A DNA stretch of 55,045 nt, the filler included, from Stramenopiles sp. TOSAG23-2 (lineage: Eukaryota), in the NCBI GenBank assembly GCA_900128395.1. It is 3 parts of 3 records of this genome, joined end to end, with 100 filler letters (N's around TTAATTAATTAA, not from the genome) between each part and the next. Parts side by side here need not be neighbours in the genome. Positions count along the whole stretch, not along the records: positions 18,394 to 36,683 come from LT649611.1; 2 more parts are not named here. One strand, given 5' to 3'. The number at the start of each line of letters is the position of its first letter. Positions within the stretch are counted from its first letter, which is position 1. This document shows, one piece after another, positions 18,394-41,549 of this stretch. A program made the translations under genes and the position numbers. The notes below the pieces were generated by a model, which did not search any database, had not been told where the DNA came from, and saw nothing but the letters and a program-made list of their open reading frames with translations.

Positions 18394-19188
18394 TTCATCT
18401 TTAAAGCCATTAAAGATAGAGATAGGAGTAACATGTAAGAGCATTTAAAAATTTTCGCCATCTTTAATGTAGATAACTCTAAATGTTTATATTTTTTTAT
18501 TATTTTATTAAATTTTATTATATTATTATTGGGAATAATATCTTTTTAAAAAAACACGATTTTTTACACGATGGATATTGTCTAGATAAATTAGTATAAC
18601 CGTCGATTAATTCTAGATAGGGACATCAGACTACGAAATATCTTTTTCAAGTAAGATATCGGTTCAACTGGGACACAAACAAAGTAGTTTGGAAATAAAA
18701 AATAATAATGAAGAATGAAAACCAACAACAAAAAAATTAAAATAAAAAATAATAAAACATAGACATATTCTTCCTACAATTTCTTTCTATAGGAATCATC
18801 TTTTAAAACAAGAAAAAACTGGTAGTGACATATACAAACGAATCGAAAAGATTTAATATAGAATTGGTTTTATCTTGTTTTGTGTATATCTTGTGAAGAA
18901 ACTGATCAAGAATATAAATATAAATATACATATAAGTATAAATAATTATATTATTTCGTTCTGGAAGGAGTTTTATATACGTCAACGAGTTTATCAAGCG
19001 TATAGTTGTAATGCGTGCACAGAATTGCTTTCTAAACGTTTCTACGGCAAGTACGTGGTCTTTTGCCGGTTTGTATTCCTGTAGTATTTTGATTTAGGGT
19101 ATATATCATAAGTGATCAGAAGTATATTACGTTGATACATAGACTTTTGTAGTATTTTATATTTATCAATAAAATACAGCTAAGTAAT

Positions 19189-22100
19189 ATGTTCTTACTG
19201 AAAATAATCCTATTGTTAGTTGCAATTCCAGCAGTAGCAGGTACAGCAACTGCAGCTACAAAAACAATTACGGAGTCTGGTGACTCCACACGCACTATGA
19301 GTGTTACTTTAAATGTCGATACAGCTATGGAAGCCGACGATATTATTACTATTAGTGGTCTGACTGGATCAGATACCTCCGATAGTGATTATTTAACTTT
19401 AGGTGGTGCTGCATCTGATAAATTTTCTACTCCAGATTATGGCTCGGGTTATGCGGTATGGACCCAAGATTCTGGTACACTAGTCTTAACAGCAAATACA
19501 AATGTTAACGCAAACACGAATATAACATTTACATTTGATCTTGACGTATATACTCCTCAAGTGGCAACATCACCTACAATTGCAACCACTTTTGCAGGAG
19601 GAAATCTTGCAGAAACGCCTCTTGTAGGTAGTAACATTCTCGCTAAAGGTCCAACAATTGAAGAGGGGACAATTCAAGAGACTGGTTCAACGACCCGAAA
19701 AATATCTATAAGTTTACAAATAGACTATGCTATGGAAGCCAACGATATTATTACTATTAGTGGTCTGACTGGATCAGATACCCCCGATGGCGATTTGACT
19801 TTAGGTGGTTCTGAATCGGGCAATGATGACTCTGCCAAATTTACGGCAAACGGAATTGATGGTAAAGGTACATGGACAAAAGCTACCGGTACGCTTGTAT
19901 TGACTCTAAACACAGGTGTTACTGCAAGCACCATGATTTCGTTTTCAGTCGATGTCGCTCAACCAAATGTTATTCAAGCAGCGGTATCATCACCTACCAT
20001 TTCTGGAACGTTTGGATCACCGGCAGTTGTTCTTTCACCAACTGCTCTTACTTTGTCTTCCACTACATATGGTATTTTGTATCAACCAGCTTGGGATTGT
20101 GAAGGGGGTGTGACGTTTACATCCGACAATCACCCCCTTGGCGACAGTTTTGCAGGAATAGGTCCGCAAACTGTGGGAGTATATCAAATAAGCGTAGGGT
20201 CATGCCAGCTGCAAAACCAAGTAGTAGTTATGGACGATTTATCAATAACAGGAACAAATACCAGTTTAACTGTTATAACCGCAGCCGAAGGCAAGAGGCA
20301 TTTTTATAATTCAGTAGACGCGACGTTAACATTAACAAAATTAAAACTCGTAGGTGGAAGCGTTTTCGATACAATGGATAACACGGACGACAATTTAGTT
20401 GATATTGGAATTGGAGGCTCAATATTGATGTTTGGTGGTGCAAGTGCAGTTCTAACTATCGATAATTGTATCTTTGAAAATAATCAGGCGCTTGCTGGAG
20501 GTGCTATATTTTATTATGCTACAAATACTGATGGAACGTGTAGCGATAGTAGTTCTACATCGAAAGAACTTTGTTTAGGACAAGGCTCTTGTTCAGATGA
20601 TAATATTGCGGAGTATGGAATATGTTTGCAGGCACAGGGTGAAACTTGGACTTCTACTTACACATGGAGTCTCACAAATGGTCAAAGCCATTGTGGGTCC
20701 GTAACGATTACAAACTCAAAATTTAAATCGAATAAAAACACGTTTATTCCACAACCGGAGATGTCCAATTACGCATTAATTCCATCAATTAGCCCCAGTC
20801 TGGTAGTTGATTTTGGTACTGGTGGTGCGATGTATATTGGAAGTGCTCATGATTTAGCTAGCAGCGGAGGTGGAGCAAATGCCAATACAATTAGCGTTAC
20901 CAATTCATTATTTGAATCAAATGCTGCAACGATTTCAGGGGGCGCAGCCTATATAGTACAAGCACAATTATTATCAGGGAAGAGCGTAACTTTTACAGAT
21001 ACTGTCTTCAGCAATAATATGCAGAGTCCTCAGGGGGCGCAGCCTATATAGTACAAGCACAATTATTATCAGGGAAGAGCGTAACTTTTACAGATACTGT
21101 CTTCAGCAATAATATGCAGAGTCCACCGGAAGAAGTGGATCCGGCTTTGTCTTCGACAGCTTTTAACGTGGCTGGTGGTGCGATTGCATTTGTCGCGATG
21201 CGGTATGGGGGTATTAATGATCATTGTGAATTTAATTTAATAACGTGTAAATTTATTGGCAATATAGCCCAGAGTAATAAAGGTCATAATTTTGTATTTA
21301 CTGAAATAAAACCTACAGGAGCTTCCGATCCATGGATGCCCATGATAAATATGACAAGTACAAATACATTATATGCAGACACAGTAGTTATGTCAAATAC
21401 CTTTTATACAATAGGTGCAAGTGTAAGTATGGTTGATGTTTCAAATTCGGCCCTTGGGGTTTATTTAAGTGAAGTTCAATCCACAATGCCGGAAATGGAT
21501 AGTTTTCAATTTACTAGTGATGGCACTACAACGTGCAACCAATTCCCAACAATCGGGACTGGTGTAATAACAATCAGTAGTATCAACTCTGGTGGTGTTC
21601 TTTCTACTTCACCAGGCACCGGTTTTATTTACTCGTACGCAAAAAATGATATAATAAGCATTACTGGTTGTTCACAAAGTACAAATAATAACGGGAACTT
21701 TAGAATATCAAGCATATCGGGAGATGATATTACCTTGGTACATAAAAATACAAATGCAGCTATTGAAACTGGAACAGATGAAACCGATTGCACAATTGCA
21801 AGAGCAATCGCAATAGATATATCTACATGCATGCAAACAATTAGTGACAAAATTTGTTGTGAAAAAACTCCAGAAATATCACTTATATCACCTGGTACAG
21901 GGACAACATTAGGCAGCACATCAGTATTATTTACAGGTGTGAATTTTGATGAATTTGACCCCCCAGTTGCCGTTGGCGTCATAACAATTAGTAGTATAAC
22001 TACAGGGGGTATTTATACAACCGAATCAGGTTCAGGAACTATTGCATCTTTTGCTGTAGATGATGTAGTTATTATTGCAAGTTGTTCCCATATAGACAGT

Positions 22101-25100
22101 TTGATCAATAATGGTGCATTTAAAATTGCTGAAATTAGTGGGGATGCTATTACATTAGTAAATAAAGATACCTTCGCAGCGATAGTAACTGGGACAGATG
22201 CAACCGGTTGTACTATTTCAAACCCAAACATTGTTATTTCAACAAACGATAATATATGGTCTTCTCCTACTCGGGTAAATACAGGAGAGCTAGCTGCTGT
22301 TTCGCCGATCGGCGTTGGTGGCAATATCCCTATTAAAGTAGCAATCAATGGCGTAACTTCTAAATATGAATTGGCATTTTTTTCATATACATTGCCAAAC
22401 ATCACATTGATTCATACCATACCGAAATTAAATGGTGGAAGTTCAAGTCGTTTACATGTGATAGCTGATGAAATTGGTGATAATACGACATTGGATGAAA
22501 TAAGTATTATAATTGCAGCAGAAGGTGCAAGTGCATGTGGTGGGACAGCATGTACAAATTTGAATCTTGTTGCAGTTACAGCTATTGCTAAGTTCAAGTC
22601 GTTTACATGTGATAGCTGATGAAATTGGTGATAATACGACATTGGATGAAATAAGTATTATAATTGCAGCAGAAGGTGCAAGTGCATGTGGTGGGACAGC
22701 ATGTACAAATTTGAATCTTGTTGCAGTTACAGCTATTGCTGATGATGTTATTATTATTGTGGGTGTAACAACAACTGGTGTGTATACATTAGCTGGTGAT
22801 ACTTCATCATTAGCAGTTGGCAATATAGTGACTATTTCTGGTTGTGGCGATAGTGGTAGTTTAATAAACAATGGAAAATTTAAAATTTCTGCCACTAATA
22901 TTGATGTTTCTAATGGTTATTCAATAACATTAGTAAACAAAGATACAGATGCAAGTATTGCGACTGGCGATGTACCTGACGGGTGTAAAATATCAAGAGA
23001 GCCATACAATAAAATTGATTGTTTATATACCACCGCTGGAGCAAAGTCTGCATGTATGGATGTTGTTCTTTCTGCTGGTAATCAAAAAAGCCCACCAAGA
23101 ACATTCTGTTACGGTAATTCAGATGAAGGTGCAATAATTATTACCGAAAATGTTCCAGATGTTGTTGAAGGCACATCAAATACCATTTATAAATTAAATT
23201 TAAAATATGAAGTTGCCAGAACAGAAAGCGTTGTTATAGCAATAACTGTTACAAATACAGTTGGTAGTTTACCATGTACCGTTTCACCAACATCAGTTAC
23301 ATTTGATACAACTGATACAAACGATGTACCGATAACAATAACTACAACTGGCAACGATATTGATGAAGGTACTAATGAAATTATAAATACATGCACGATA
23401 ACACACACAATTTCAACCACAGATCCCGTTTACAGTTTAGTTTCTACTAAATCGATTGATATAAATGTCAGAAATGATGATAATGCTGACGTATATTTGT
23501 GGTACGATCAAACGTACCCTGTCAAATTTTTAGCATTTTACGCAGAAGAAAGTAAAACCGTAATCTATGATATTAAATTAGAAACTGAACCTACTGCAGA
23601 TGTTACAGTTACAATAGACATCGTTTTAGATCCTTTAAATGAAATTAAAATTGCAAATGATGTAATCACAATTACTGGCGTAACAACTAATGGGGTATAT
23701 ACTACTGCCGATGGAACCCCACTTGGGACTGGTATTGGTAGTTATGGAGTTAACGATATTGTAACGATAGCAAGCTGCAGTGTTAATACTGAAAACAATG
23801 GATTTTTTAAAATTTCAGATATTTCAGGAAACGATATTACATTGATTAATAGGTTTACAAATGCTGCGATAGTGACTGGGATTGATATTACAGATTGTAC
23901 AATATCAAAATCAAGAATGCATCCTTCTCCAACTCCAAATATCGCGATAACACCAATTTCAAGTGATTTAACATTTACCTCGAGCAATTGGGGTGTTTAT
24001 CAAACTGTAAATTTAACATCTATCAACGATAATATTGACCATGACTTAGCGCGCTTCACCATTTTGCACACTATAAGTTCTTCCGATACAGTATTCGTGA
24101 ATAAAATTAATGCAAAGAAATCGATTTTAGCCGTAATAGACGTTGATAATGATGATACTACAGGCATAGTGTGGTCGTATCTAAACGATGATTTAACATT
24201 AATTGAAAATGGAAATTCAAAACGAATACAAGTTTCGGGTTTAAATTCTCAACCAGTTTCTGATGTTACTATTACAGTGGAAATACCTTCGGATTGGATA
24301 AGTATTATAAAAGTAACACCACATCAAATAACAATAAGCAAACACGAATGGAACGATGTAGAAAACATATTTACATTTCATGCATTATTAGGTGCCCCTA
24401 TGAGCACTTCGGTGGGCATCAAATTGAAAAGTTCTAGTACAGATATGAAATATGCTTGGGGAACCAACATCGCAACAATTGCCGCATACGTTTCAACTGC
24501 TGCTGATGAGCCGACAACCAACGTAACAAACCATCCACCAAAACATTCTGCGTGGACAACTGCAACGTTTGAATTTTACGCACCAGAGTCAAATGTCGTC
24601 AAATTTGTCTATAGATTGGATGGTGGGGAGGTACAAGAAATTCCCTGCCCGGTTAGCACATATTGTAACAAAGTAAGTTTCGAAACTTTGGCATTAGATT
24701 TTGGAATGCATCGTTTAGAAGTCCAAGCCGCATCAAACGAACGTCTAGATACTACCGCGGTGTCTATAGATTGGACAATTTTACATTGTAACGGCGAGCC
24801 GCAACGGTATGCTAAAATTGAACCAAATGGTGCAATCCAATGCTTCGATTGTCCTCAATCCGTCGGCGTCAATTGTGCAGAAATGGACGCGGAATGGGAG
24901 CATATTTATGCATATCCAAATTGGTGGACGTCTGGCAGCTCTGACGATAATTACTTTAAATGTCCGTTGGAAGGTTCCTGTTTAGGAGGTTTATATGAAA
25001 AGGATGTGAATGGGACTATTACGGTACAAAAATCTAGGTGTGCCGAAGGTTACGATAATTCCGCACCAGTATGTGCTGTTTGTGCCGATGAATATGTCTT

Positions 25101-27996
25101 TCAACAAAATAGATGTGTTTCCTGCCCAGGCTATGTGCCTGGAAAAGCTACTGCGCCGACGCGCTCCATGATGGTTGCAGGTTTTGTAACCATGTGTTTT
25201 TCTCTTGTTTTTATGTACTTCTTTTTCACTATACAAACGTTGTCACTCGCTGAAGAGGAAGATTTAAGGGTTAAGTTAAGTGAATTAGACTTAGACGAGG
25301 TGTTTAAAGAGAAAAAAGAACTAACACATGATGTTTTCAGCGAGTTTTTAGATGGAGAGGGTTTGACTGAAACGGAGATATTATATATATTTCATGCCGT
25401 TGATAAAGACGAAAGTGGGTTGCTCAATCGTGCAGAATTAGAAGCATATGTAACCAACAATGGTAAAATCGATATGGAAGAATTACAAGCAAAAAACGAA
25501 GAACACCACAACAAAATAGAAGATACTCAAAAAGTAATGAGGCAAATTGGTGGAACGTTGATGAAATTCAAAATTTTGCTGGGCTATTCTCAGTGTATGA
25601 CTTACCTTCCTGTCGTTTTTGATTTACCTTTTCCTCCAACAATGACTTATTTGATGATCCTTCTTGAAATGACGTCATTGGATATTTATGTATTGTTTGG
25701 CGAAGCTAGCTGTTACATGCAAACCAATTTTAAACAAAAATTTGTTTTTCACATGCTCTTGTTTCCAGTAATTGCGCTTATGGTTTGCTTTGTATTAGGA
25801 ATTATTTATTGGCGGACAAAGGGTTGCTGCAAACGCCCACGTTTTACGTTGGAAAGCGTCAAGACACGCCTGTATACATTTGCAACATTGACATGTTTTG
25901 GTCTATATACCGGCATATCCACGAGAATCTTCCGATTGTTTAAATGCCGGAACATTGATGATGAGTACTATTTAACGTCTGATTACAGCATGAAATGCTA
26001 CACAGATGAATGGTGGAGTTACGCGGGCGTTGCTATTTTTTGCATGTTTGTGTATGTAGTTGGGATCCCACTAGCCCAATTTATCGTACTTCTGCAAAAT
26101 CGTCATCATTTGCATGAAGAATCAGCGCTCGATCATCAGTCGCATCGTTTAGCCAAGAAAAAATTTGGTTCCATATATGAAAATTATATTGAAGATTGCT
26201 ATTATTTTGATCTATTGGATTTGCTTCGACGTTTGATTTTGACTGGTGGGCTTATTTTAGTGGGAGAACATAGTATTGTTCAAGTTTTATTGGGAATTTT
26301 AACTAGCCTTTTTTGGTTATTAATTGTAGCAATAAAATTTCCTTACAGAGCATATTGGGATAACATACTATCACTTGCTTTGTCGTTTGCTTTGGTATTA
26401 TCTTTGATATGCGGTTTTGCACTAGAACTATTTGATGCCACACGCCTTGCAAATAATGAAAGTGTAGATGGAACGAAATACGAAGAGATTATTTTTGATT
26501 GGATATTAACTTCAATGACCCTTGTTTGTATTTTTGCTGGAATAATTGCATGTATACTTACCATACCTTGTATTCAAGATTGTCTTCGAAAATATATATC
26601 GAAGGAATTAGATAGTCGCAGAGAAATGAAAGAATGGGTGGAGAGACAGAAGGTTTTAGTGAAATGGTTGCACATAGACGATGTAAAAAACACCCTGAAG
26701 GTAGCAACGGCAACGCTAGAAGAAAAGGCAGAAATTGAAAGACTAAAGCATGGTCAGAAGCTTAAGAAGAGAAGGAAATCTCTCTCGGCATTATCGGCTA
26801 ACAATGTAAGTGTATTGCCCATAGTAGATACAGAGAAAAGAATGTTTAGCACTGGTAGTCTAGTTCATATTAAAAAAATGAAAACTATTGCTGGTCACCA
26901 TGCGGAAGTTGGTAATATAAAGAGAAAACGTGTAGAAGGAACGAAACATTTAAAACGTAAACATGAGGAAGTACGGCAACGAAGTGAAGCACAGCGAAGA
27001 AATCTAGAAAAACGAATTCAGCGAAGAAAATCTCAGAATAAAGCAAACAGTAATAAGAAATCTCAACCAGAATCAACAAAGAAGAAAGAAAAAGTAGCGG
27101 AAGTACGGGAATCATTAAAAGAATTTAAACATGTAAGAGCGAAGGCTATTCACGCAAAAAAAGTCGGTGATATGGTATTAGCAATGACGCTTTTAAAAAA
27201 ATGTAAAGAAATAAAAACAATTATTATTAAAAAAAATGATGAAGCAGAGAAATGCGATAACAAAGAAACTGGTATGGAGAAAAATAAATTGATAAAGAAC
27301 AAGCCAAACTCGAGTAAAATTAATAAAACAACAATAATACAAAAGGAAGAGACATCAGGAGTAGTAGCACTGAAAAAAAAGCCTAAAAGGAAAAAGAAGA
27401 AAATATATATATCAAAAAATAAAATGACATTGGCAAAAACAAAGGATCATATTGCTGGAATGTATGAAAAGAAAGTCAAAAGTGATGTAGCGAATGATAA
27501 AAAAGGTAATGAACGCGATACATTAACCCATTTTTGTGATGATTTTTTTTCTCACATGTTTGGTATGCCAGCATTGGCTGGCAAAAAAGTATACGAATTC
27601 AAGCAAGGTATTAAACGATATGCAAAGGACGATACTGGTGTAAGATGGTTTGGTACATTAATTGGATGGTTGCCTGAAAATGTACATAAAGGTATAATTA
27701 CACCATTTAAAACAATTGCAATTGATGTATATTTGTTTCTATTGCAAAATGTTTTCCCAGTAGATTCCATCGAAGAATTATTAGATGATGATCCATGTTT
27801 AATAAATTTTGTAAAACTTCAAAATGCACTTGATATGTTATTTAAAAACCAATTAAATGATGAACGTATAATTACATTGAAAAAAGAAATATCGACTATT
27901 AATCATGAAAATGTCGAATTTAATTTTGCATTTGATAAAATCATGCGAGTGTGGTATAGTTTTGGTACTCCACCAACATGTCCAAGATCCAAATAA
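19189..27996 (+). CDS. Giant (~2853 aa after collapsing two duplications) surface/receptor-like protein: signal peptide, Ig-like repeats, Pmp-type beta-helix, IPT/TIG-like, Cys-rich region, multi-TM domain, EF-hand, basic tail
   Basis: Three ORFs (19189, 21114, 22567) become one frame when the 95-bp and 151-bp exact duplications are removed; GGAI/FxxN motifs; EF-hand DKDESGLLNRAELE; multi-TM block with YFDLLDLLRRLILTG. Confidence 0.85.
20935..21124. repeat. Exact 95-bp tandem duplication causing a frameshift (probable artefact)
   Basis: 20935-21029 is identical to 21030-21124. Confidence 0.92.
22439..22740. repeat. Exact 151-bp tandem duplication causing a frameshift (probable artefact)
   Basis: 22439-22589 is identical to 22590-22740. 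Confidence 0.92.
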
Positions 27997-27998
27997 TT

Positions 27999-28463
27999 TT
28001 ACAAAAAGATAATATCCCTCTCTAAGGACATCTTCCAGCAGAAGAAGGCAGTGTCGAAATTGCAATTGTTTTTATTGTTTCTTATGAATTGAATCCTCGA
28101 TTTCGGAATGATCAATTGGATATCCGGAAACAATTGCTGAAAGTATTTTCTGGTTAGTTTCGAAATCGGTAGAATCAAAACAAATGGTTTGTTTAATACT
28201 TTCAATCGTTTTAGAATGGCTTTCGCTTTACTAAAGGGGGGATTGGACACAATGATATCCCCCTCATCGGAATCAAAGAAATCGATATTTTTGTGGATGA
28301 CTTCAAAGCCTAGAGCTCGTAAAAAAGCGCCTGAGGAACCGTCTCCCCAAAACGCCTCCCAAATGACTTTATCTTTCGGGAGATATCCCTCGATGGATTT
28401 CCATGTCGATTTTTTAGTCATATAGTCATCTTCGGTGTGGTATCCCTTTGGGGTAAAATTCAT
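27999..28463 (-). CDS. Small virus/phage-type DNA N6-adenine (amino) methyltransferase
   Basis: DDYMT, WEAFWGDGSSG SAM-binding motif I, IDFF, IIVSNPPFS catalytic motif IV, RIQF. Confidence 0.85.
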   Translation of the reverse strand: MNFTPKGYHTEDDYMTKKSTWKSIEGYLPKDKVIWEAFWGDGSSGAFLRALGFEVIHKNIDFFDSDEGDIIVSNPPFSKAKAILKRLKVLNKPFVLILPISKLTRKYFQQLFPDIQLIIPKSRIQFIRNNKNNCNFDTAFFCWKMSLERDIIFL

Positions 28464-28894
28464 TTAAAAAAGATATGGTTATCTTATATAGTTTTTTTTA
28501 TTCTCTCTTTCTCTTTAACAGGTTCGTCATCCTCTGCGACACTCTTTGGCATAAAGACCGTTCGTATATCCGTTCATGTGATGCACGCGAATAATTTTCA
28601 CCCAGTCTTAATCATCTTTGGCAGAATAAAGGGCATTTGCATTACATAATTATGAATAACTGATGTATAACGTTTTTTTAAAGTAATATATATATATATA
28701 TTTATTAGAATTTAGAATTATAATAGAGCTATGCACCTATTAATTCTATTATATAATAGGAAATAATAAATAATACATCCCGTTTTTTGGTACACCACCG
28801 GTACTACGGAATTGTTATAGGAAAAATTAAAAAAAAAAAAAACCAATTTTTGAACGAGATAGGGGCCGAAAAAGTCCTTACTGGACTTATTTAC

Positions 28895-28933
28895 GCAAGC
28901 CTGGCAAGCTGGGCAAGCCCGGCAAGCCAGCAA
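28895..28933. repeat. Short array of GCAAGC units at ~9-bp period
   Basis: gcaagcctg-gcaagctgg-gcaagcccg-gcaagcca-gcaa. Confidence 0.7.
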
Positions 28934-29289
28934 TTCCTACTCATGACAATTCCTTTACTCTCAGAAGAATACAGTAAACTGAGCCAAAAATAATACGAAA
29001 CATATATATAAAAAATTCTCTTATTTATAATACAAACATAATATATTATACTTCGCGTATTTTTTTTAAATATCTTAGATCTCCTCTCGTCTACACAAAA
29101 TGATTATATAATAAATTCTCTTGCTGCTGTTGGTTTCTCTAAGGTAAAAACTCTCATGAAAAAGCACCGGCATTATACATTTTAAATACACTGTATTTAC
29201 TACAAAGCGTTCGTAAATCTCTATATGTGTGTTCTTTAGAAATTTAATGTACGTGTTAATGTGTTGGTCCCTATATTAAAATAAAACAC

Positions 29290-31392
29290 TCAATCACATG
29301 GACGAAATTCATCTCGTATAATTTTCAAAATCCCACCTATCAAGACTGATGGATCTCGTATCGCTTCATTAATTAAAAATCGACCTTCCTCACGTCCTTT
29401 TTTAGAACACATTGCACGTAACCATAACTTTAACACTCGCCCACCGCTACCAGCATTTATTTTTGATAATTCTTCAATCATTTTGATACCACGATTGGTT
29501 AATTTTGGCATATCTTTAATTTTACCAGGCACGTCGCCTTTGATCAACATTCGTAATGGCAATAATGTTTGTTGTGCTGCCGTCCCATTAAAATCGGTCA
29601 CAAAATGTGCTGCTGCAATAAATTCTACTAACGATGCCCATCCCAAACCAAAAGCAGCTTCTTCTGTTGCAAAATTATTCAATGAAGATTTCACATATGG
29701 TATATTCATACCTTCATCCAATGAACTTGTATGCGCATTCCACATAAATCCCAATAAATGATCAAATGCATCATCACGTCCAAATTTACTACAATTATTT
29801 TCTGCTTCTTGAATCTTCATGAAAAATGTTTTCCAATTTTCTTGTGCCATTTTCATTTTAATGCATGCATTTGTTTTAGAAGGTATGGTATTGTTTCTAC
29901 AAAAGATAGACCCATTTGTTAATCTTGGATGTTCCACATAAATATTTGCAGGAATATTAGGATACGCAGCAGCACTGGCACCAAGTAAAGGCACAATCAT
30001 TAATTGATAATTCATATCAGCCCACCATGATTTTGATGTCATGGTATAATTTGAAGTAAATAACCGTCCAGAGCTAAATTGCCAACCAAATTGAAGTGCT
30101 AATCCCCATAAAATATTTTTATTGATATTGCTTTCAAATAAACATGGTGATGAATGCGTGGTTTTTAAAATTAACGTTTTCATTGCACCTAAACGTTCAG
30201 TATATACCCATGGATTGATGATGGTTGCATTTGTTTTTTCATCTTTTGGTAAATTTTCTAACAATATCGCTTCATCCCAATATGGTGGTAACAATGAATT
30301 GTTTATTTTATTAATATTATTATTATCTGTTTTTTCTTTGTGATTATTTTCTTTCTTCTTCTTCTTCATCATCATACTCATCCTCACAGCATTTGTTTCC
30401 TTCCTTTTATTTACACACACATCCGATTTTGTATCTGCGTCAATTGGACAATACGATATCATATTATTTGAACATGTTTTATTATTTATTGGATCATTAC
30501 AAAGTAAAAACGTTTTTGCAACATCTTGACCATGTTTTGCTAATGTAACAAATTGTGTTAAATTGTATTTACTAACCATATCAATCGAAGCGCCAGATTT
30601 CATCAAATTGATAACAATTTGTCCACGAACTTTATCTTGAAACAATGGTGTCATATTATGACCAGACATAGCTCCGCCATCACTGCATGCCATACCTTGA
30701 TACCATTGAAAGACTGTACCAGTTCCCATAAAAGCATTAAAGGTTTGTTTTTCATTGAAATATTTCGAAACTAAAATTTGTTTCGGTAATGGATCTAAAC
30801 AAGATAATGCAACTGTGACAGTATTATTTAATTTCATTTGATACGTATCATTATATTTCGCAATCATCCATTTTCCCATTTGTCTCCAGCTATGATCTTG
30901 TTTTGCAGCAGCATTAAGCATATTTGAAAATTCATTTGGATATTGTGTTTCAAGCAAACCATATGCTAAATGATGTTGTAATGTTTGTATTTCCCCTTTT
31001 AATGCTATTTCAAATGGTGCCATACCACCAGCTGATGCACCTGCATATCTTATAATATTCAGTTTATCTTTTGATATACGATTAAATATTTGTTGCATCC
31101 CAAAATAAAACGCATCTAAATTACCCCCACCTGAAATAACTAAATCAACCTCGCCGATTGTTGACATACTATTACTTATAGATGAAGAAGAAACCATATT
31201 TGAAGCACGAGTAGATAACTCTTTTTCTGCTATTATTGCTTCATCTGGTGGGGTATTTAAATATTTATTCCATGTTTCATCTACTATATCATTATTTGTG
31301 ATTGTAATTGCGTACGAGAAATGTAATACTATTGTTACTAATATTAAAATAACATATGGTATATTCATAATAATACTATTTGCTTTTGTCAT
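29290..31392 (-). CDS. Secreted patatin-like phospholipase fused to a C-terminal LEG1 (C6orf58-like) domain
   Basis: Signal peptide; SGGG, GASAG, DGG patatin motifs; then PPYW, INPWVYTERLG..K.LI, NILWGLALQFGWQFSSGRL, SWWADMNY LEG1 motifs. Confidence 0.8.
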   Translation of the reverse strand: MTKANSIIMNIPYVILILVTIVLHFSYAITITNNDIVDETWNKYLNTPPDEAIIAEKELSTRASNMVSSSSISNSMSTIGEVDLVISGGGNLDAFYFGMQQIFNRISKDKLNIIRYAGASAGGMAPFEIALKGEIQTLQHHLAYGLLETQYPNEFSNMLNAAAKQDHSWRQMGKWMIAKYNDTYQMKLNNTVTVALSCLDPLPKQILVSKYFNEKQTFNAFMGTGTVFQWYQGMACSDGGAMSGHNMTPLFQDKVRGQIVINLMKSGASIDMVSKYNLTQFVTLAKHGQDVAKTFLLCNDPINNKTCSNNMISYCPIDADTKSDVCVNKRKETNAVRMSMMMKKKKKENNHKEKTDNNNINKINNSLLPPYWDEAILLENLPKDEKTNATIINPWVYTERLGAMKTLILKTTHSSPCLFESNINKNILWGLALQFGWQFSSGRLFTSNYTMTSKSWWADMNYQLMIVPLLGASAAAYPNIPANIYVEHPRLTNGSIFCRNNTIPSKTNACIKMKMAQENWKTFFMKIQEAENNCSKFGRDDAFDHLLGFMWNAHTSSLDEGMNIPYVKSSLNNFATEEAAFGLGWASLVEFIAAAHFVTDFNGTAAQQTLLPLRMLIKGDVPGKIKDMPKLTNRGIKMIEELSKINAGSGGRVLKLWLRAMCSKKGREEGRFLINEAIRDPSVLIGGILKIIRDEFRPCD

Positions 31393-31580
31393 TTTGTTTT
31401 TATCGATAATAATATATAGATATATTATTTTCTTCCTCGTTATGTTGTATGTATGATGTTACTAATATTAAAATAACATATGGTATATTCATAATAATAC
31501 TATTTGCTTTTGTCATTTTGTTTTTATCGATAATAATATATAGATATATTATTTTCTTCCTCGTTATGTTGTATGTATGA
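31333..31580. repeat. Exact 124-bp tandem duplication over the start of the patatin-LEG1 gene (probable artefact)
   Basis: 31333-31456 is identical to 31457-31580. Confidence 0.9.
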
Positions 31581-32036
31581 TTGATTGAAATTATTATTAA
31601 TTATTATATCCAAAAAAAAAATTGATGATGATTGATATGGCAAAAAAATATTTAAAAAAATATTTAAAAAAAATATTGGCTGATCTATATATCTTATATC
31701 GTGATGCACCGCCGAATTATATACATATGTATCAAAAATAATGTGTGAAGTATTTATGGCGACTACATGTGGCAGGTTTAAAAGGTTTAAAATATATTTA
31801 TCTATATATATATTATTATACATTGGCAACATCATTGCTGTTTTTTCTCTGGATTTTTATTCTTCTTCATCAAATCCAGAAAATCCTACTTAACAACATT
31901 TTTGATAGGAAAAAAGACTATAGTGAGTAAAGTTAATTAATCTTTACCTACCTGAAATTTAGGATGGACACAGCATTAAATAGCATAGATAGAGCATTAA
32001 ATTCCAGAAACAGCGCTCGTAAGAAATGATCTTATA

Positions 32037-32191
32037 CCTGCATCATATTCACCTGCTATTATACATATATTTGATAGGTATGTTATAATATTTAGTATAC
32101 TATATGTACGAAGTGGATCACGGGCATAGTAATAGAAATTTGCAATTCTATATATGTATACCTCTATAGCAGGTGAATACGATGCACCAGG
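32037..32191. mobile_element. Putative ~155-bp MITE
   Basis: 21-bp inverted repeats with 1 mismatch (32039-32059 / 32166-32186); outer CCTG...CAGG flanked by TA on both sides. Confidence 0.45.
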
Positions 32192-32438
32192 TAATTGAAG
32201 AAGTCTGATTTGACATTTTAATTTGACATATAGTGCTATAGCCCGCTATAGTGCTGGTGCGTCTGAATAGCCGATAATACGGAGTTAGGGTTCAGATTTT
32301 CGCGTTTGAATTGAAATATAAAACGTTGTCGTAAGGTAGTATATATATAAATATATATACAGTTATCAAAATTTTTTATTCACCGCCCGCTTATTTTTTT
32401 CTCCAGCAAATAAAAATATATTTACACATCTCGTTTAA

Positions 32439-33343
32439 TCATTTTTTTTTTCTTTTAAAAGAGATATTAACATCATTCATAGCAGTTGTTGCCCTTTTTC
32501 TTTTCGTTTTAATATTATTATAACTATGATTATTATTCAAACCGACAAAGAAATCCAATTCATCTTTTTCAGAATTTATAGTATTTTTAACTACAGGTGC
32601 AATGATTGGTTTTATTGCATTCAATTTAGCGTTACGACAACGTTTTGTACTCCATATATTAAATGTATTTGAATTGATTCTTCCAACACATATAAATAAA
32701 TTACCTGGTGAGTTACTATGGTTTGCCGCATGGAATAAATATCCATTAACGGTATGATTTACATTTGCACTATGTCGTCCAGAACTCCATCCGAACCAAT
32801 ACTACTATTGTCATCGATTTCCAACACACCGTTACTAATTGTTTTTTCCATTAAACCATTACTGCTATTGCCATAGCCTATTTCTAACATATCTTTATCC
32901 CGGTTTGCATGATATGTATCTAAATATGTTTTGTGAATTTCAGCACTCGTAAATTTTGACGTACACATATATGATTCTTGAATTGTTTCTTTTATTTTAT
33001 TCTTTACATATAAGAAGAAAGCTTTGTCTTCCTCTTCGTTAATCGTATCGAGGTTACCAGCTTTTTCCATCGTCTCGATTTTCTCATTCTTTACGCTCGT
33101 TGCCTTGAAGAGTTTGTCATCTTCCATTATTTTTAAAAATGTAACTGATGATATGACAGATTTGTTGAATACGTCAGAATCTATACCATCAGTTGATTGT
33201 GAATCTTGACTCCAAGCAAATTCAGAAGTCTGTTTCATATTTGAAATACTACGCCTTGCTTCAATTATTTCTGGTACATCGTGAATATTTACAATGACTG
33301 GTGTATCATTTATAATAGTAGTAGATGTGCTTACGTCGCCCAT
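32439..33343 (-). pseudogene. Unknown ~300-aa gene with one frameshift near 32800
   Basis: The 194-aa ORF overlaps a second open frame (YWFGWSSGRHSANVNHTVNGYLFHAAN...KRKKK) running from about 32801 to 32439. Confidence 0.45.
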
Positions 33344-33766
33344 TGTAATATTTAAAACAAGTGACTTTAAATGTATACTTATATAATTCGTGCTTTTGTT
33401 TTAACATATATTATGTATGTATGTATGTGATAATTGTTGTAACCTCTGTATATACTCTATGAATATACTTTGGTATTTTAATTATTTTAGCACTACTTTT
33501 AGCACTATACTTTTAGCACTATAATACTATTATTCTCAGTGTACCGCGTGCCACCAGTCCCGAAGCACGTGCCGAAGGTTTTTTAGTAATTACTAGCGGA
33601 GGACAAAATCTAGTGGAGTACAAAATTAGAAAGGTAGTGACCAGGCTATCGAACAACAGAATTACTACCAAGAACAAAGGAATTTCTCTTTTAGACTTCC
33701 AGGACTTCTAGTTAACGAGACTTCTAGCTAAACTCTGAGAGTACGTTCATCGGGCGTGACCGCGTG

Positions 33767-34147
33767 CCATGTAATTGAGCTAACTCTAATGCTGTGTCCA
33801 TGTAATCGGGTCAACTCTAGTGCTGTGTCCATGTAATCGGGTCAACTCTAGTGCTGTGTCCATGTAATCGGGTCAACTCTAATGCTGTGTCCATGTAATC
33901 GGGTCAACTCTAGTGCTGTGTCCATGTAATTGAGCTAACTCTAATGCTGTGTCCATGTAATCGGGTCAACTCTAGTGCTGTGTCCATGTAATCGGGTCAA
34001 CTCTAGTGCTGTGTCGATGTAATCGGGTCAACTCTAATGCTGTGTCCATGTACTTGAGCTAACTCTAATGCTGTGTCCATGTAATCGGGTCAACTCTAAT
34101 GCTATGTCCATGTAATTGAGCTAACTCTAACGCTGTGTCCATGTAAT
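33767..34147. repeat. 31-bp minisatellite, 12.3 copies, two unit variants
   Basis: CCATGTAAT-(TGAGCT|CGGGTC)-AACTCTA(A/G)TGCTGTGT repeated head to tail. Confidence 0.95.
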
Positions 34148-34186
34148 AAAAACGACAGTTATTCTCAGTAATAATTTTGAAACACA

Positions 34187-34374
34187 CCTGTCGACAAGAT
34201 AAATAGGCATTCATACTTAGTAGTTTACAATCACGTCAGGAAGAAAATGAAATTCAAAAAAACATAATGGTGTGGGTTAGGGTTAGGGTTATCCTGTCGA
34301 CACGATAAATAGGCATTCATACTTAGTAGTATACAATCACGACAGGAGAAGAAAATGAAATTCAAAAAAACATA
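34187..34374. repeat. Two diverged ~80-bp direct repeats separated by (GGGTTA)3
   Basis: 34187-34266 is similar to 34293-34374; telomere-type hexamers at 34274-34291. Confidence 0.85.
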
Positions 34375-34644
34375 GAATTTTTTATAACAAGTTGATCGAA
34401 AGTAAAAGTGTGTATAGGTGTAGACGAATAACAAACTTGGGGTTTTTTTTTTTCTTCAAAGAACCATCATATCAATCATAGCATATATAGATAGATATAT
34501 TGTGTACCATCGTTTTATATATATATATAGATAGATAGATATTTATTTACGTATTTCTTCTTGTTTTTTTTTTTTTTTTCAAAATTAATAGATTACTTTA
34601 CATTTTTTTTAAAAAAAAAGTACAAAAAAGAGAAGAAAAAAAAA

Positions 34645-35550
34645 ATGCATGGAAAATTATACTCCTCGTTTGATCGTGTAACCAAACGACAAAATGGTTT
34701 AACTTTGTTGGAAAGGAAACCACCACGTAATCCAAAATTTGCAAATGTGAAAGGTACATTGGATACAGGGAATTCATTTTCAAAAGTGAAATTAATATCG
34801 AACCGTGAATACATACGACGTCGTAGTGAAATATTCAAACGTGTACGTGCATTAACTGTATATGAACTTATACAAGAAAATGAAGAGCAACAGGAAAGTA
34901 TCAACAACTTAGTGGATGAAGGAAAAGAACAACAAGCACCATTGTCGCCTGGTTCGATGGTCGTAGTTGATGCAAAAGCAAATGGCGATAAATTTAAAAA
35001 GCCATATTTAATATTGGATTGCCGATCCTCCCCGGATGATTATGAAATATGTCGTATCAGTACTTCAAAACATTATCCAGCAGATTGGTTACGTCATGAC
35101 CGCATTACACCTACTTTATATCATTATAAAAATAGGGAAAACAAAGTTATTGTTGTATACACTTTGGATGATCGTGAAGGTAGAGTAGTTGCAAGGCAAT
35201 TTGTAGAGAAGGGTTTTGACAATGTCTTTCTTTTGACTGGTGGTTTAGAAGCATTTATCAAAGATTTCCCACAATCCGTGGAAGGTTCATTACCAGAGGA
35301 AGCTGGTATGGATGAACAGTTACGAAGAACAGCAAATAAACGACCACCATTAGGAAATAGTACAAACAAAAATAAATTAACACGTGGCAATATTGCAAAA
35401 GCTGGTTTAGATACGCCAGGAAAGCGTAGTGGTAATAGAACTGGTAGGAGCACTGGTAGGAAAAGTCAACGTAATGCACCATCCGTCGCGCCGACTAATT
35501 TTAGTACTATGTCGAGGACGGAAACATTGTTAAATTGGAAAAAAAAATAG
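34645..35550 (+). CDS. CEP41: Centrosomal protein of 41 kDa (rhodanese-like domain)
   Basis: P.NPKFANVKGTLDTG, PYLILDCR, YKNRENKVIVVY, FVEKGFDNVFLLTGGL; ATG at 34645. Confidence 0.85.
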   Translation: MHGKLYSSFDRVTKRQNGLTLLERKPPRNPKFANVKGTLDTGNSFSKVKLISNREYIRRRSEIFKRVRALTVYELIQENEEQQESINNLVDEGKEQQAPLSPGSMVVVDAKANGDKFKKPYLILDCRSSPDDYEICRISTSKHYPADWLRHDRITPTLYHYKNRENKVIVVYTLDDREGRVVARQFVEKGFDNVFLLTGGLEAFIKDFPQSVEGSLPEEAGMDEQLRRTANKRPPLGNSTNKNKLTRGNIAKAGLDTPGKRSGNRTGRSTGRKSQRNAPSVAPTNFSTMSRTETLLNWKKK

Positions 35551-35679
35551 TATCATAAAATTGTGTATGTAAAGTCAACGTAATGCACCATCCGTCGCGC
35601 CGACTAATTTTAGTACTATGTCGAGGACGGAAACATTGTTAAATTGGAAAAAAAAATAGTATCATAAAATTGTGTATGT
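35462..35679. repeat. Exact 109-bp tandem duplication at the CEP41 3' end (probable artefact)
   Basis: 35462-35570 is identical to 35571-35679. Confidence 0.9.
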
Positions 35680-36161
35680 CATTATTATTCGTTTGTAGAA
35701 AAGAAATAATTATAAAGAGATTAACATGTGAGTTTTTCAAAAAAGTTTGATGTGTGTGGAGTGTGGAGACATGCGTCGCGTTGGTGTAATATGGAGTGTG
35801 GTGTTTAGATCAATCCAATTTGTTTGTATTTAAAATTTTAAAAAAATATATATACGAAGTTCGTATATTTTTTCATCTTTCATCTGTCCTCTTCCGGTTT
35901 AATTTGTATTAAAACGCGTGCATCTCGTCCATATATATATAGATCATGTTACATGCATAATAGAAAACACATTGTTCCAAATATATATATATATACGTAT
36001 TATTATAATTTAAATTCACAATTAAAATTAATATTATACAATTATATAGTACAAGAGACGTGTATTGTATTGTATAAAAAACAGAAAAGTAGTACTTCTC
36101 GTAAAATCTCCGACAAGCAATATATATATATATATATTTAGGTTTTCACTAAGCAAATTAT

Positions 36162-36683
36162 ATGAACATGGCTTCAATTATAAATAATAATAACACGGAT
36201 GATGAGAGCAAAGGTGAAGATATTACAAATAACCATGCAGGCGTTCTTGTTTTGGATCCTATAATTGTGCAAGAGATGAGTGAAATGACTATTGTTAATG
36301 ATGATCCGTCATTCATTGATATATTGCCAAGTGGTGGTGCTGGGCGGAATATTGTTTATACCATCCTTAGTATGTTAGATATGAAATCAGTAAGGTCATT
36401 GATCTATTCATCCTTTATTCAATTATTTTGTAAAAATCGAAACGATGATACATTATATCAACTGTGTAAAGACATACAATATCAATTTAAAATACAATTG
36501 GCGAAAGAATTAAAGATTAAATACGAAGAAGAATTTCCAAAAGGTACGCCAATAGTATGTGCATGTGAAAAAGGATGTTTTGAGGATGTGAAATTATTGA
36601 TTACAGGTCGTAATGATGTGAATGGTAGTAATGGTAATAATAATAATATGACATTGAAAGAATACGTGAATCAAGTCGGTAAA
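36162..36683 (+). CDS. Ankyrin-repeat protein, 3'-truncated by contig end; possible F-box-like segment
   Basis: GTPIVCACEKGCFEDVKLLI ankyrin repeat; DILP....IVYTILSMLD is F-box-like; ORF runs into Ns. Confidence 0.65.
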
Positions 36684-38258: not shown

Positions 38259-41200
38259 ATGGCAGACAGCTGGACTTGCAAAGAATGTGGTAGAGGTGAT
38301 AATAAGCACCATATTCGCCTCAACTTTTATTCTTGTAATTATTGTCACCCAAGGAAGCCAAAAGGAAAGAGAAGAAGAGTTAAAAAATATGTTAGAGCTA
38401 ATAAACAACAAAAACAACATCCATCAGATATGCGTTCTCCAATACCATCATCATCATCAAGTAATAATAATAAGAATAATAATAATAGTAATAATATAAA
38501 GATTAAGTCCAAATCCAGACGAAATACACGTACCAAAATTAGTGATGCAAACAAAGCATATTGCAAGATGCAGATTGAACATTATACTTTATTGTGTGGG
38601 ATGTTAAATCAATTGGACTTTACATTAGAGATAGACCATATCAGACAGATCAAAAAGATATATGTATATAAATATTTTGAGCAGATGATTATGTATTATC
38701 GCTCTGAATCAAAGAATAGGGCAACAACAAAGGTCCATGAGATTGCAAGTAAAGTTGCAAAGGATCCATCTATAGGTGGTTTGCCTTACAAACGCGGTAA
38801 AAAGCGTCATGGGAAAGTGTCTGGAAGACAAGTAAGAAATTGGGCAAAACAATTTATCCAATCTGGAGATTTCAAAAAGAATGAAGTTGGTCTATGGGAA
38901 AGGTATAATGTGATAACACATGAGGAAGATGTTAAACAAAAAGTATTGGAATACCTGAACGAACATATTGGTGTTGAAAAGACGTTCAAAATATTTAAAA
39001 ATGGTAAAAAATCCAAAGGATTTCGACGGATGAAAAAATTTAATATGTCACAATTTAAAAGGAAAGTAAATGCAATTCTTAAAGAATCAAAGATTTTGAA
39101 AAATAAAGGAAAGTCAAAAAAACAAATAAAACAACCAACATCAACCGCACCAATAGCACCAATAGCACCAATAGCACCAATAGCACCAATAGCTCAACTA
39201 GCAACAACTACTACTACCACCACCACCACCACCACCACCACCACAACAACAACAACTACTACTACCACAGCAACAACACAAAATGCAATACCAAGTAATG
39301 TAGTAGAAAATGATGCTAATAATAATAATAATAATAACAATAACACCAATGAAAATGATAATGCAACTGAGACTGTAGAGCCTGAATATATGACTGTTTC
39401 TGATAAAGTATTATATCAATGGCTTAATCTCCTTGGTTTCACATATGGTTCTGTAAAAAGTCGTGGGTATGTTGATCGTCATAATGACGACGATGTTGTT
39501 AAATATCGTCAAAATAAATTTTTGCCGAAATATTATGAACAAGAACACCGCATGTATCACTGGATATCAATAAAAAATGACAATGGTGAACCAACTACAT
39601 TTCATATAGATACTTATACCCGTTGGTTTGAGGCACAATTTGGCCAAGAATTTGATTTAACTAAACTTGGTCCATATCGTGGGCAATTACATCTAGATTT
39701 TGTTCAAGATGGTGGAGCAGTAGACCATTTAGATCATCATATGCAGCCATTAATACCTGTCTTTCAAGATGAATCTACATATGGTTCAAATGAAACACCA
39801 AAATATGCTTGGTCTAAAATTGGTGGTGATGTTACAATGTCAAAAGATGATGTTGGCCAATCTGTCATGATAAGTGGTTATTGTACTGAATTTGATGGTA
39901 TTATTACTATGACAAGTGAACAACTTGCAGAAGTAAATTACAACCGTCAAAATGCAGGTAAACAAGATCTGAAGTATAAAGAATTAGCAACTGCATTTAA
40001 GTATGGTAAAACACATGAAGGGTATTGGAATGCAGAATTAATGCTTGAAGATATAGATGATGCCATAGATGTATGTGAAGTTGTATATAGTGGTAATCAG
40101 ATGTTTTATTTTTTTGATCATAGTACTTGCCATGGTGCATATGCAGATGATGCATTACGAGCAGAGCTTATGTCAGCTGGTCCAGGTGGAAAACAACCAT
40201 TAATGCATCCTACAACATGGAAAGATGAAGAAGGAAACATAAATGAACAATCAATGGTATTTGAACCAGGAGATATTCCAGTTGTCCCATTTACTGATGG
40301 AATAGATGCTCATATTGGTGAAGCTAAAGGCTTACGGCAAGTGTTATTTGAACATGGTTTGATCACAGAGGAAGTAGCACAAATTAAGCGATTTGTAAAG
40401 AAGAAAGATGGAAATGGTGGTGTGAATGCTGATGGTAAGAAAAAGAAAAAAAAGAAAAAAAAGGTAAAATATATTCCACCAGAAGTAATAACATGGTTAG
40501 ATGAAGATGGGAAATTACAACCTGGAACAAAAAGGAACGGTAATTGTGGATGTTCTGCCAGTCTTCCATTGCCAAATATAGATTTACATGATGTTGGAGA
40601 AGAAGAAAAAGCGAAGTTTTATAGAATCTATGGATGTGGAGAAGATTTGATGCCAAATAAAAGGATTGAAGAAGAATGTGTAGATCCTGATAATCCAACG
40701 AGGATACATCCTAATTGCACTGCTTCCTTACATAAATGCTGTAGTTATTATGCATGTGCATATTGCCATAATCAATATCATAAAAAGTGCTTGGGTCTAG
40801 ATCCATATAAAGGCTTCAGTAAAGATGCTGAATTTTTCAACGAGAAAGATTTTATATGTCCAGAATGTATTATTTGTGCAAAGGAAGATTTAGCATATAT
40901 ATCACCATCTGATACTGATGATGAAAATGAAAATGAGGAAGAGGAGAAGGTGAGTGATGATAATGATGGCAACAATGATGCTAATGCTAATATTAATGGA
41001 AGTAGTAGCAATAGTAGTAATAATAACAGCAATAGCAATAATAGTATTAATAGTGATAATAATAATATTATTGCTATGGATGTAGATGAAGAAGAAGAAG
41101 AAGATTATTCACTTAAAGGGTTACGTAAATTAATGGCAGAACAAGAGGATTTTATGAACCAAAAATCGCAGGTAGAAGAACTAATTGTAAGACGGAATCA

Positions 41201-41549
41201 TCTTTGTTTGTTTCTTCCAAAATTCCATTGTGAATTAAACATGATTGAGTTGATATGGGGAAGGAGTAAAAGATTTGTACGTGACAGAACAAACGGCCAG
41301 TTTGATCGTCTACTCTATGGCGATAAGAACTATGAGAAAGGTCTAATTTTTTTATCATATGAAGTTGGTGAAGGTAAAAATATGACCAAATCATTAGTTT
41401 TTAAATATGCTCGTAAATGCCGCGAGTTAATGAATATTTATCATAAAAATATTGAGTCGGCGAATCTGCATGCGGTACGTGCTTCATATAAGAGCCATAG
41501 ACGCGCATCAGAACGTCTTCAAGCAGTTTTTGATGCACAACGTGCATAA
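38259..41549 (+). CDS. DDE transposase (1096 aa) with N-terminal Zn ribbon and inserted PHD-like finger
   Basis: FQDES (D504), FFDHSTCH (D620), FLPKFHCELNMIELIWGRSKR (E997); WTCKEC..CNYC at the N-terminus; CAYCHNQYHKKC...FICPEC insert. Confidence 0.88.
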   Translation: MADSWTCKECGRGDNKHHIRLNFYSCNYCHPRKPKGKRRRVKKYVRANKQQKQHPSDMRSPIPSSSSSNNNKNNNNSNNIKIKSKSRRNTRTKISDANKAYCKMQIEHYTLLCGMLNQLDFTLEIDHIRQIKKIYVYKYFEQMIMYYRSESKNRATTKVHEIASKVAKDPSIGGLPYKRGKKRHGKVSGRQVRNWAKQFIQSGDFKKNEVGLWERYNVITHEEDVKQKVLEYLNEHIGVEKTFKIFKNGKKSKGFRRMKKFNMSQFKRKVNAILKESKILKNKGKSKKQIKQPTSTAPIAPIAPIAPIAPIAQLATTTTTTTTTTTTTTTTTTTTTTATTQNAIPSNVVENDANNNNNNNNNTNENDNATETVEPEYMTVSDKVLYQWLNLLGFTYGSVKSRGYVDRHNDDDVVKYRQNKFLPKYYEQEHRMYHWISIKNDNGEPTTFHIDTYTRWFEAQFGQEFDLTKLGPYRGQLHLDFVQDGGAVDHLDHHMQPLIPVFQDESTYGSNETPKYAWSKIGGDVTMSKDDVGQSVMISGYCTEFDGIITMTSEQLAEVNYNRQNAGKQDLKYKELATAFKYGKTHEGYWNAELMLEDIDDAIDVCEVVYSGNQMFYFFDHSTCHGAYADDALRAELMSAGPGGKQPLMHPTTWKDEEGNINEQSMVFEPGDIPVVPFTDGIDAHIGEAKGLRQVLFEHGLITEEVAQIKRFVKKKDGNGGVNADGKKKKKKKKKVKYIPPEVITWLDEDGKLQPGTKRNGNCGCSASLPLPNIDLHDVGEEEKAKFYRIYGCGEDLMPNKRIEEECVDPDNPTRIHPNCTASLHKCCSYYACAYCHNQYHKKCLGLDPYKGFSKDAEFFNEKDFICPECIICAKEDLAYISPSDTDDENENEEEEKVSDDNDGNNDANANINGSSSNSSNNNSNSNNSINSDNNNIIAMDVDEEEEEDYSLKGLRKLMAEQEDFMNQKSQVEELIVRRNHLCLFLPKFHCELNMIELIWGRSKRFVRDRTNGQFDRLLYGDKNYEKGLIFLSYEVGEGKNMTKSLVFKYARKCRELMNIYHKNIESANLHAVRASYKSHRRASERLQAVFDAQRA
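39146..39345 (+). repeat. Coding low-complexity repeats: (GCACCAATA)5, poly-Thr and poly-Asn trinucleotide tracts
   Basis: APIAPIAPIAPIAPI, a long T run and an N run in the transposase. Confidence 0.85.

Follow-up and report, generated by a model that had tools for sequence, protein, structure and literature searches.

The Leg1 proteins, among them human C6orf58, zebrafish Leg1 and the platypus monotreme lactation protein (MLP), form a conserved family of secreted proteins, the fold of which is novel and has been solved, but which has no known biochemistry. A published survey counts 413 proteins carrying the Leg1 domain (DUF781) in bacteria, slime mould, diatom, invertebrates and vertebrates, with DUF781 as the sole identifiable domain in 409 of them (Dang et al. 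2020, PMC7060313), and this agrees with the premise of an earlier, sequence-only reading of the DNA analysed here, namely that Leg1 normally stands alone. Patatin-like phospholipases equipped with an added non-catalytic module are represented by Pseudomonas PlpD (5fya), Legionella VipD (4akf, 4kyi) and Pseudomonas ExoU (4akx), which are bacterial autotransporter or injected effectors and have no Leg1 partner. In this study, we analysed a window (i.e. the whole stretch of DNA) of 55,045 nt, filler included, from Stramenopiles sp. TOSAG23-2 (assembly GCA_900128395.1); it consists of parts of three records joined with 100 N between them, adjoining parts not necessarily being neighbours in the genome, and its positions 18,394-36,683 (LT649611.1) contain a gene, at 29290..31392, in which a patatin-like domain and a Leg1 domain are fused. 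The gene is nuclear and intron-less, comes from an uncultured marine flagellate and is present in poly(A) RNA libraries; it encodes a predicted signal peptide, a patatin-like domain, a linker and a Leg1 domain in one chain. We consider it moderately probable that the best explanation of the whole is a real, expressed fusion gene, the product of which would be an exported lipid hydrolase with Leg1 as its tethered, non-catalytic partner.

The open reading frame (ORF) list and the translation bear out the single 700-aa ORF that had been described at this position, and the full-length protein is computed at ~75 kDa before glycosylation. Its parts are as follows:

29290..31392, minus strand: the whole gene, a single uninterrupted ORF (700 codons and a stop) in which no intron is apparent
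31309..31392, minus strand: residues 1-28, predicted signal peptide MTKANSIIMNIPYVILILVTIVLHFSYA, the sole hydrophobic stretch, with cleavage likely after SYA as judged by eye
30409..31308, minus strand: residues 29-328, divergent patatin-like lipid acyl hydrolase domain (predicted), comprising two family-specific N-terminal helices, a core at ~80-301 and a four-Cys tail
31120..31134, minus strand: residues 87-91, SGGGN, glycine-rich (oxyanion) loop, aligned with SGGGAKG of VipD
31027..31041, minus strand: residues 118-122, GASAG, nucleophile elbow with Ser120, aligned with GASAG of VipD
30673..30684, minus strand: residues 237-240, SDGG, with the predicted catalytic Asp238, aligned, though only in a second and weak stretch, with DGG of VipD
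30292..30408, minus strand: residues 329-367, a 39-aa low-complexity Lys/Asn linker (pI 10.4) in which KRK (329-331) and KKKKK (343-347) are dibasic sites
29293..30291, minus strand: residues 368-700, a complete, basic (pI 8.8) Leg1 (DUF781) domain without a signal peptide of its own, matching Pfam Leg1 and MLP

The fusion is real and not an assembly error. At 90% identity the protein falls into a cluster of 30 members; 15 of these were listed and seven examined, and all seven (from JGI, ENA and NCBI) cross the linker. Four of them (P0007, P0010, P0012 and P0017, from JGI and ENA) measure 700-702 aa, P0007 being the one of 702 aa, and the remaining three comprise one call of 804 aa with an upstream extension and two fragments that start within the lipase half. 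The lengths of the Lys/Asn runs vary in three of the seven (P0007, P0017 and P0005), always by whole codons. Additionally, a metagenome DNA contig from a second strain (L001) is 98.9% identical over window positions 31457..29029 and contains the intact 700-aa ORF, from which that of the window differs by four synonymous and two non-synonymous codons. The Lys/Asn linker noted in the sequence-only reading is present as such, at 39 aa and with its run of lysines. Two database entries deserve separate mention. In the 804-aa call (P0013), an AT-rich 5' region without a stop led the caller to add 104 low-complexity residues, which are probably not real coding sequence. Another metagenome contig (L002, 3073 nt) is identical to window positions 30310..29318 and then continues for ~2 kb unlike the window; it is likely a chimeric assembly, unless the gene is arranged differently at its 3' end, and was not used as evidence.

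The gene is also represented in RNA. Part of the stretch is present in 20 of the 22 sequencing runs listed, with 14, from eight studies, on record as RNA, and the stretch occurs in seawater and marine RNA libraries, including poly(A) metatranscriptome contigs. In all four runs whose contigs were examined (from four studies) both halves are covered, the contigs together spanning 29127..31310, and the absence of joints in them gives no sign of an intron over that interval. In this comparison the low-complexity linker (30299-30388) was masked and positions 31311-31392 had no cover, such that gaps prove nothing. A contig of 234 nt (X14 record 10) matches the window on either side of the mask, at 30188-30298 and at 30389-30414, and is colinear over the linker, with 96 letters against the 90 of the window across the masked stretch, i.e. 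an in-frame difference. Across the linker, for which a check by reads or complementary DNA had been proposed, DNA assemblies run through; among the RNA contigs a single one does so, and a single transcript is not proven.

The C-terminal half is, by its sequence, a full-length member of the LEG1/C6orf58 family. Pfam Leg1 (PF05612) matched residues 379-694 at E 8.9e-50 (170.2 bits against a cut-off of 25), the match covering positions 14-328 of the 331 in the profile, which upholds the earlier assignment of a complete LEG1-like domain, and a phmmer search against the PDB matched MLP (4v00_A; E 4e-14), with residues 369-678 against positions 31-339 of the chain. A look-up of the Leg1 half in the Atlas, with PF05612 clusters excluded, gave no usable match. 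The usual Leg1 architecture, in which a signal peptide directly precedes the domain and no other domain is present, is not what is found here, the domain starting only at residue 368. This half begins with LLPPYWDEA, level with the mature start of the relatives P0003 and P0004 just behind their hydrophobic leader, and neither hydropathy nor alignment with these two proteins revealed a hydrophobic segment before it in the fused protein; a separately translated Leg1 half could thus not enter the secretory pathway. P0003 (395 aa) and P0004 (413 aa) are the closest Leg1 relatives outside the cluster; they are stand-alone proteins that match the Leg1 half only, at 62% identity. Similarly, the locus L006 carries a stand-alone Leg1 gene (67% identity), and a tblastn search of the 1149 nt that precede it revealed no lipase domain. 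All three possess a methionine and a hydrophobic segment of their own, and more distant Leg1 genes (L003-L005; 35-37% identity) are likewise stand-alone with a leader. No Leg1 relatives were found in the prokaryote genome contigs or the viral contigs scanned.

For the N-terminal half it was concluded, from alignments and a structure model, that it belongs to the patatin fold as a divergent member whose predicted catalytic residues are intact; this assignment is carried by bridging relatives, a profile match to VipD and the modelled fold, not by a Pfam match of the protein itself. Among the distant relatives, P0164, P0175 and P0179, which match the N-terminal half at E 6e-7 to 8e-6, exceed the Pfam Patatin cut-off of 27.7 bits (59.9, 55.8 and 37.0 bits, respectively) and three more fall below it (39 of the 150 relatives listed were scanned), while eight of the 48 sequences in a family alignment (the domain of the window plus 47 of the 150 listed) match Pfam Patatin at E<=0.01. 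The profile of this alignment, when searched against the PDB, matched Legionella VipD (E 2.4e-6) with the GGG loop and the GxSxG motif aligned. The model of the lipase half is confident and contains the patatin alpha/beta fold. Among viral structure models there were 21 matches at E<=0.001, the best being a Harvfovirus patatin (E 2.1e-8), and a language-model look-up placed 27 of the 30 nearest clusters in one Patatin set. Within the 48 sequences G98, R115 and G118 (numbered as in the protein) are invariant, and D83, S120, G122, T224, D238 and G239 are conserved in at least 90%, indicating that few positions in the family are better conserved than the proposed dyad with its glycines. Behind the core, the four cysteines of the tail (C298, C307, C315 and C326) include two positions that are invariant in the 13 closest sequences. 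An NCBIfam scan of the protein returned nothing meaningful. Patatin-like proteins of giant viruses (Nucleocytoviricota) thus provide the best viral structural matches, and are the nearest clusters by language-model features, yet a search of IMG/VR viral contigs with a 13-sequence alignment revealed no close relative of the lipase half, and none of the giant-virus proteins is fused to Leg1.

A HMMER search with residues 1-342 against 1.84 billion representative proteins returned 174 at E<=0.001, of which 110 reach E<=1e-10 and 26 reach E<=1e-30, the full-length relatives being mostly of 310-340 aa. The closest (P0032; 322 aa, 47% identity, E 8.4e-87) is a stand-alone protein that spans residues 18-326. 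It belongs to a family (P0032-P0043) that shares with the N-terminal half a patatin fold with two extra N-terminal helices (W..YL..PP motif), the dyad and a Cys-rich tail; these stand-alone proteins end after the tail, whereas the protein of the window continues into the linker and Leg1. One relative, P0041 (593 aa), carries a GH76 glycoside hydrolase (residues 23-295, E 2.3e-46) ahead of its patatin-like domain (302-592), i.e. its additional module stands in front of the lipase domain, whereas Leg1 stands behind it. In a maximum-likelihood tree of 50 rows (48 aligned sequences and the domain parts of P0041 and P0089, with a midpoint root for drawing only), the lipase domain of the window is sister to the stand-alone P0032 (support 99/93) inside a group mostly of 313-340 aa, although its row was flagged for unusual composition, and P0041 is sister to the stand-alone P0039 (100/98) on a separate branch. 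Their separate positions indicate that the Leg1 and GH76 fusions arose independently, such that the lipase module has been fused at least twice, and the GH76 fusion suggests that this domain is a module of exported hydrolases. The N-terminal 300 residues of P0089 (610 aa) were considered as a hidden Leg1 domain and this was ruled out, as they bear no similarity to it.

Since the lipase half nests among stand-alone proteins of ~320 aa and the close Leg1 relatives stand alone with their own signal peptide, comparison with these relatives shows the fusion to be a derived, lineage-restricted event, in the course of which the fused Leg1 copy has, by alignment, lost its own signal peptide. A search for fused forms among longer proteins, performed with the Leg1 half and with the lipase half, retrieved only the protein itself, which is weak evidence. 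The literature search found nothing that joins Leg1/DUF781 with patatin or phospholipase, and nothing on secreted patatin-like proteins of phagotrophic protists; the sequence-only reading, which knew of no description of the fused architecture, is in accord with this. As the lipase half escapes domain libraries, a protein of the window type would count among the 409 sole-domain members, and the supplementary lists of the 413 proteins in PMC7060313 might contain long members with an unrecognised extra domain. We rate the protein as two known families combined in a new domain architecture and not as a new kind of system.

The protein probably enters the secretory pathway, as is suggested by its N-terminal signal together with 12 N-x-S/T sequons and 12 cysteines, including the conserved four-Cys tail. 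The hydropathy of the entire 700-aa protein (19-residue window) exceeds 1.6 at one stretch only, centred on residues 12-24, which fits the signal peptide proposed earlier, and the stand-alone relatives of the lipase half likewise start with a hydrophobic segment. Members of the LEG1/C6orf58 family are secretory-pathway proteins with N-glycosylation sequons and cysteines, and the protein of the window is alike by its sequence. With a pI of 6.0 the lipase half is, in its mature form, mildly acidic, in contrast to the strongly basic linker and the basic Leg1 half behind it.

The setting of the gene is eukaryotic, the window being AT-rich (GC 0.27-0.39), and GC3 is similar in both halves of the gene (0.19 and 0.23). 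A scan for bacterial promoters and terminators, which is not applicable to a eukaryote, returned 32 sites against 32.1 expected, i.e. chance. Other long ORFs of the window encode a nucleotide-sugar transporter, MORN-repeat and Mpv17/PMP22 proteins, and others, and one unbroken ORF (41972-54505, minus strand) encodes an axonemal-type dynein heavy chain of 4177 aa; the presence of this dynein in a single frame, together with the other long ORFs, indicates that the organism builds flagella and has few introns. The dynein ORF is adjoined by one of 1096 aa (38259-41549, plus strand) with a weak DDE_3 transposase-type match (E 3.4e-6) that is below the cut-off. Directly downstream of the fusion gene, on the same strand, lies a 154-aa ORF (27999-28463, minus strand) with an NPPF motif and a sub-threshold match to an EcoRI-type adenine methyltransferase (E 7.3e-5; 22.7 bits against a cut-off of 26.4), which is odd in a eukaryotic contig. 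At the 5' end of the gene a perfect tandem duplication of 124 nt (31333-31456 = 31457-31580) holds the start codon, the first 20 codons and 64 nt of leader; in the contig from the second strain this unit is present in single copy. The duplication is either an assembly artefact or a recent event that could damp translation.

Under the explanation that we prefer, the exported protein would act outside the cell or in the food vacuole, where the patatin half may attack membrane lipids, whether phospholipid, lysophospholipid or glycolipid, by hydrolysis of their acyl-ester bonds. The Leg1 half, which is basic and putatively helical like the all-helical fold of MLP, would stay tethered to the enzyme without a catalytic role of its own; by binding the target surface, be it a microbial envelope or a membrane, it would raise the local concentration of the enzyme. 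In VipD and ExoU, helical domains at the C-terminus play a comparable role for the patatin domains. The resemblance to PlpD, VipD and ExoU has its limits, as the lipase half is only 14-18% identical to these proteins and the protein of the window, in contrast to those bacterial proteins, is eukaryotic and, as far as its features indicate, secretory. MLP is reported to be bacteriostatic against two Gram-positive species (PMC4224336), and by analogy this activity would fit the proposed surface-binding role of the Leg1 half. Modelling was uninformative at the level of the whole protein: a single-sequence AlphaFold prediction reached a pLDDT of 32.7 and was unusable, while a predicted complex of the two halves scored 0.00, which is no answer and says nothing either way, since alignments were not used and the fold of the partner was uncertain.

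Several observations weigh against this explanation. The signal peptide was read from hydropathy alone. Pfam Patatin (PF01734; gathering cut-off 27.7 bits) matched neither the whole protein (E<=1) nor residues 1-342 (E<=10), nor any of the 12 closest relatives (P0032-P0043); the patatin domain of the sequence-only reading therefore stood as regards its motifs, at the positions given for them, and its fold, and failed as regards the Pfam match by which it was to be checked, the assignment being rescued by the fold and profile evidence. The canonical patatin oxyanion loop is GGGx[K/R]G. In the corresponding SGGGNLD (87-93) the three glycines are kept, and the basic residue and last glycine are absent (family consensus SGGGFL), such that phospholipid specificity, or activity itself, is not assured; furthermore, the lipid acyl-hydrolase role is a prediction for every member of the family. 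At the level of expression, the contig that is colinear over the linker extends 26 letters past the mask, short of the 31-letter rule, and the contigs cannot prove a single transcript; in addition, the upstream copy of the 124-nt duplication opens a 38-codon ORF (ATG at 31516) that stops just 5' of the real start. Finally, the fusion was seen in one cluster at >=90% identity only, and there is hence no recurrent co-occurrence to back a functional link; restriction to one narrow lineage limits the weight of the hint concerning Leg1, and the dibasic sites of the linker mean that the halves may be separated after synthesis. Given the single narrow cluster, the stand-alone nearest Leg1 relatives and these dibasic sites, the link between Leg1 and lipid hydrolysis, membrane attack or prey digestion appears weaker than the sequence-only reading had stated.

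The dibasic sites lead directly to a reading in which the protein is a co-secretion polyprotein, one chain sharing a signal peptide and a promoter, with a Kex2/furin-type cut at the linker and halves that act independently. The disordered-type low complexity of the linker with its KRK and KKKKK sites, the existence of both halves as self-sufficient secreted proteins in relatives and the confinement of the fusion to one narrow cluster would all suit it, and the fusion would then be of little help with the function of Leg1. There is no evidence of cleavage, however, and the frame of the linker is kept elsewhere through changes in its length, although this would be needed with or without a cut; the reliance of the Leg1 half on the upstream signal peptide is similarly compatible with both readings. 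We regard such a polyprotein as somewhat unlikely. The departure of the oxyanion loop from the canonical form and the absence of a Pfam Patatin match bear on a different question, namely whether the patatin half is degradative on foreign membranes at all, or is instead an acyltransferase, a lipase of the cell's own secretory or lysosomal lipids, or catalytically weak, with Leg1 as the functional head in the form of a signalling or adhesion ligand. Patatin-fold enzymes include transacylases, and zebrafish Leg1 is reported to bind FGFR (PMC4764323), which would favour such a head; we nevertheless judge this arrangement decidedly unlikely.

It is extremely improbable that the gene is an artefact in which mis-assembly, or a sequencing error within the linker, has merged two neighbouring genes. 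An A-rich simple repeat such as this linker is prone to assembler or polymerase slippage, contigs from short-read RNA break there, and the gene has the perfect duplication at its 5' end that the other strain lacks. Against this, the same open frame recurs in the contig of that strain and in seven of seven cluster members from three sources, the linker changes in length only by multiples of three, the region ahead of the Leg1 half offers no start codon with a signal peptide after it, and one contig from an RNA library is colinear across the linker.

The comparisons made for the lipase half bring to light a sizeable patatin-fold family with a hydrophobic N-terminal start (the 174 representative proteins at E<=0.001), whose closest members are missed by Pfam Patatin and whose domain has been joined to other exported modules, Leg1 and, in P0041, GH76, at least twice. 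For Leg1, a natural fusion to a recognisable enzyme provides a testable hypothesis, i.e. that Leg1 works at lipid or membrane surfaces. The stronger proposition, which we think unlikely as matters stand, is that the protein constitutes a true Rosetta stone, with Leg1 domains in general being membrane- or lipid-surface-binding partners of lipid hydrolysis and the flagellate protein a targeted membrane-attack enzyme for killing or digesting bacterial prey. If true, it would account for the selective effect of platypus MLP on bacteria as well as for the lipid-homeostasis signal upon overexpression of pig Leg1a, and would provide a first biochemical role for the orphan human C6orf58 protein.

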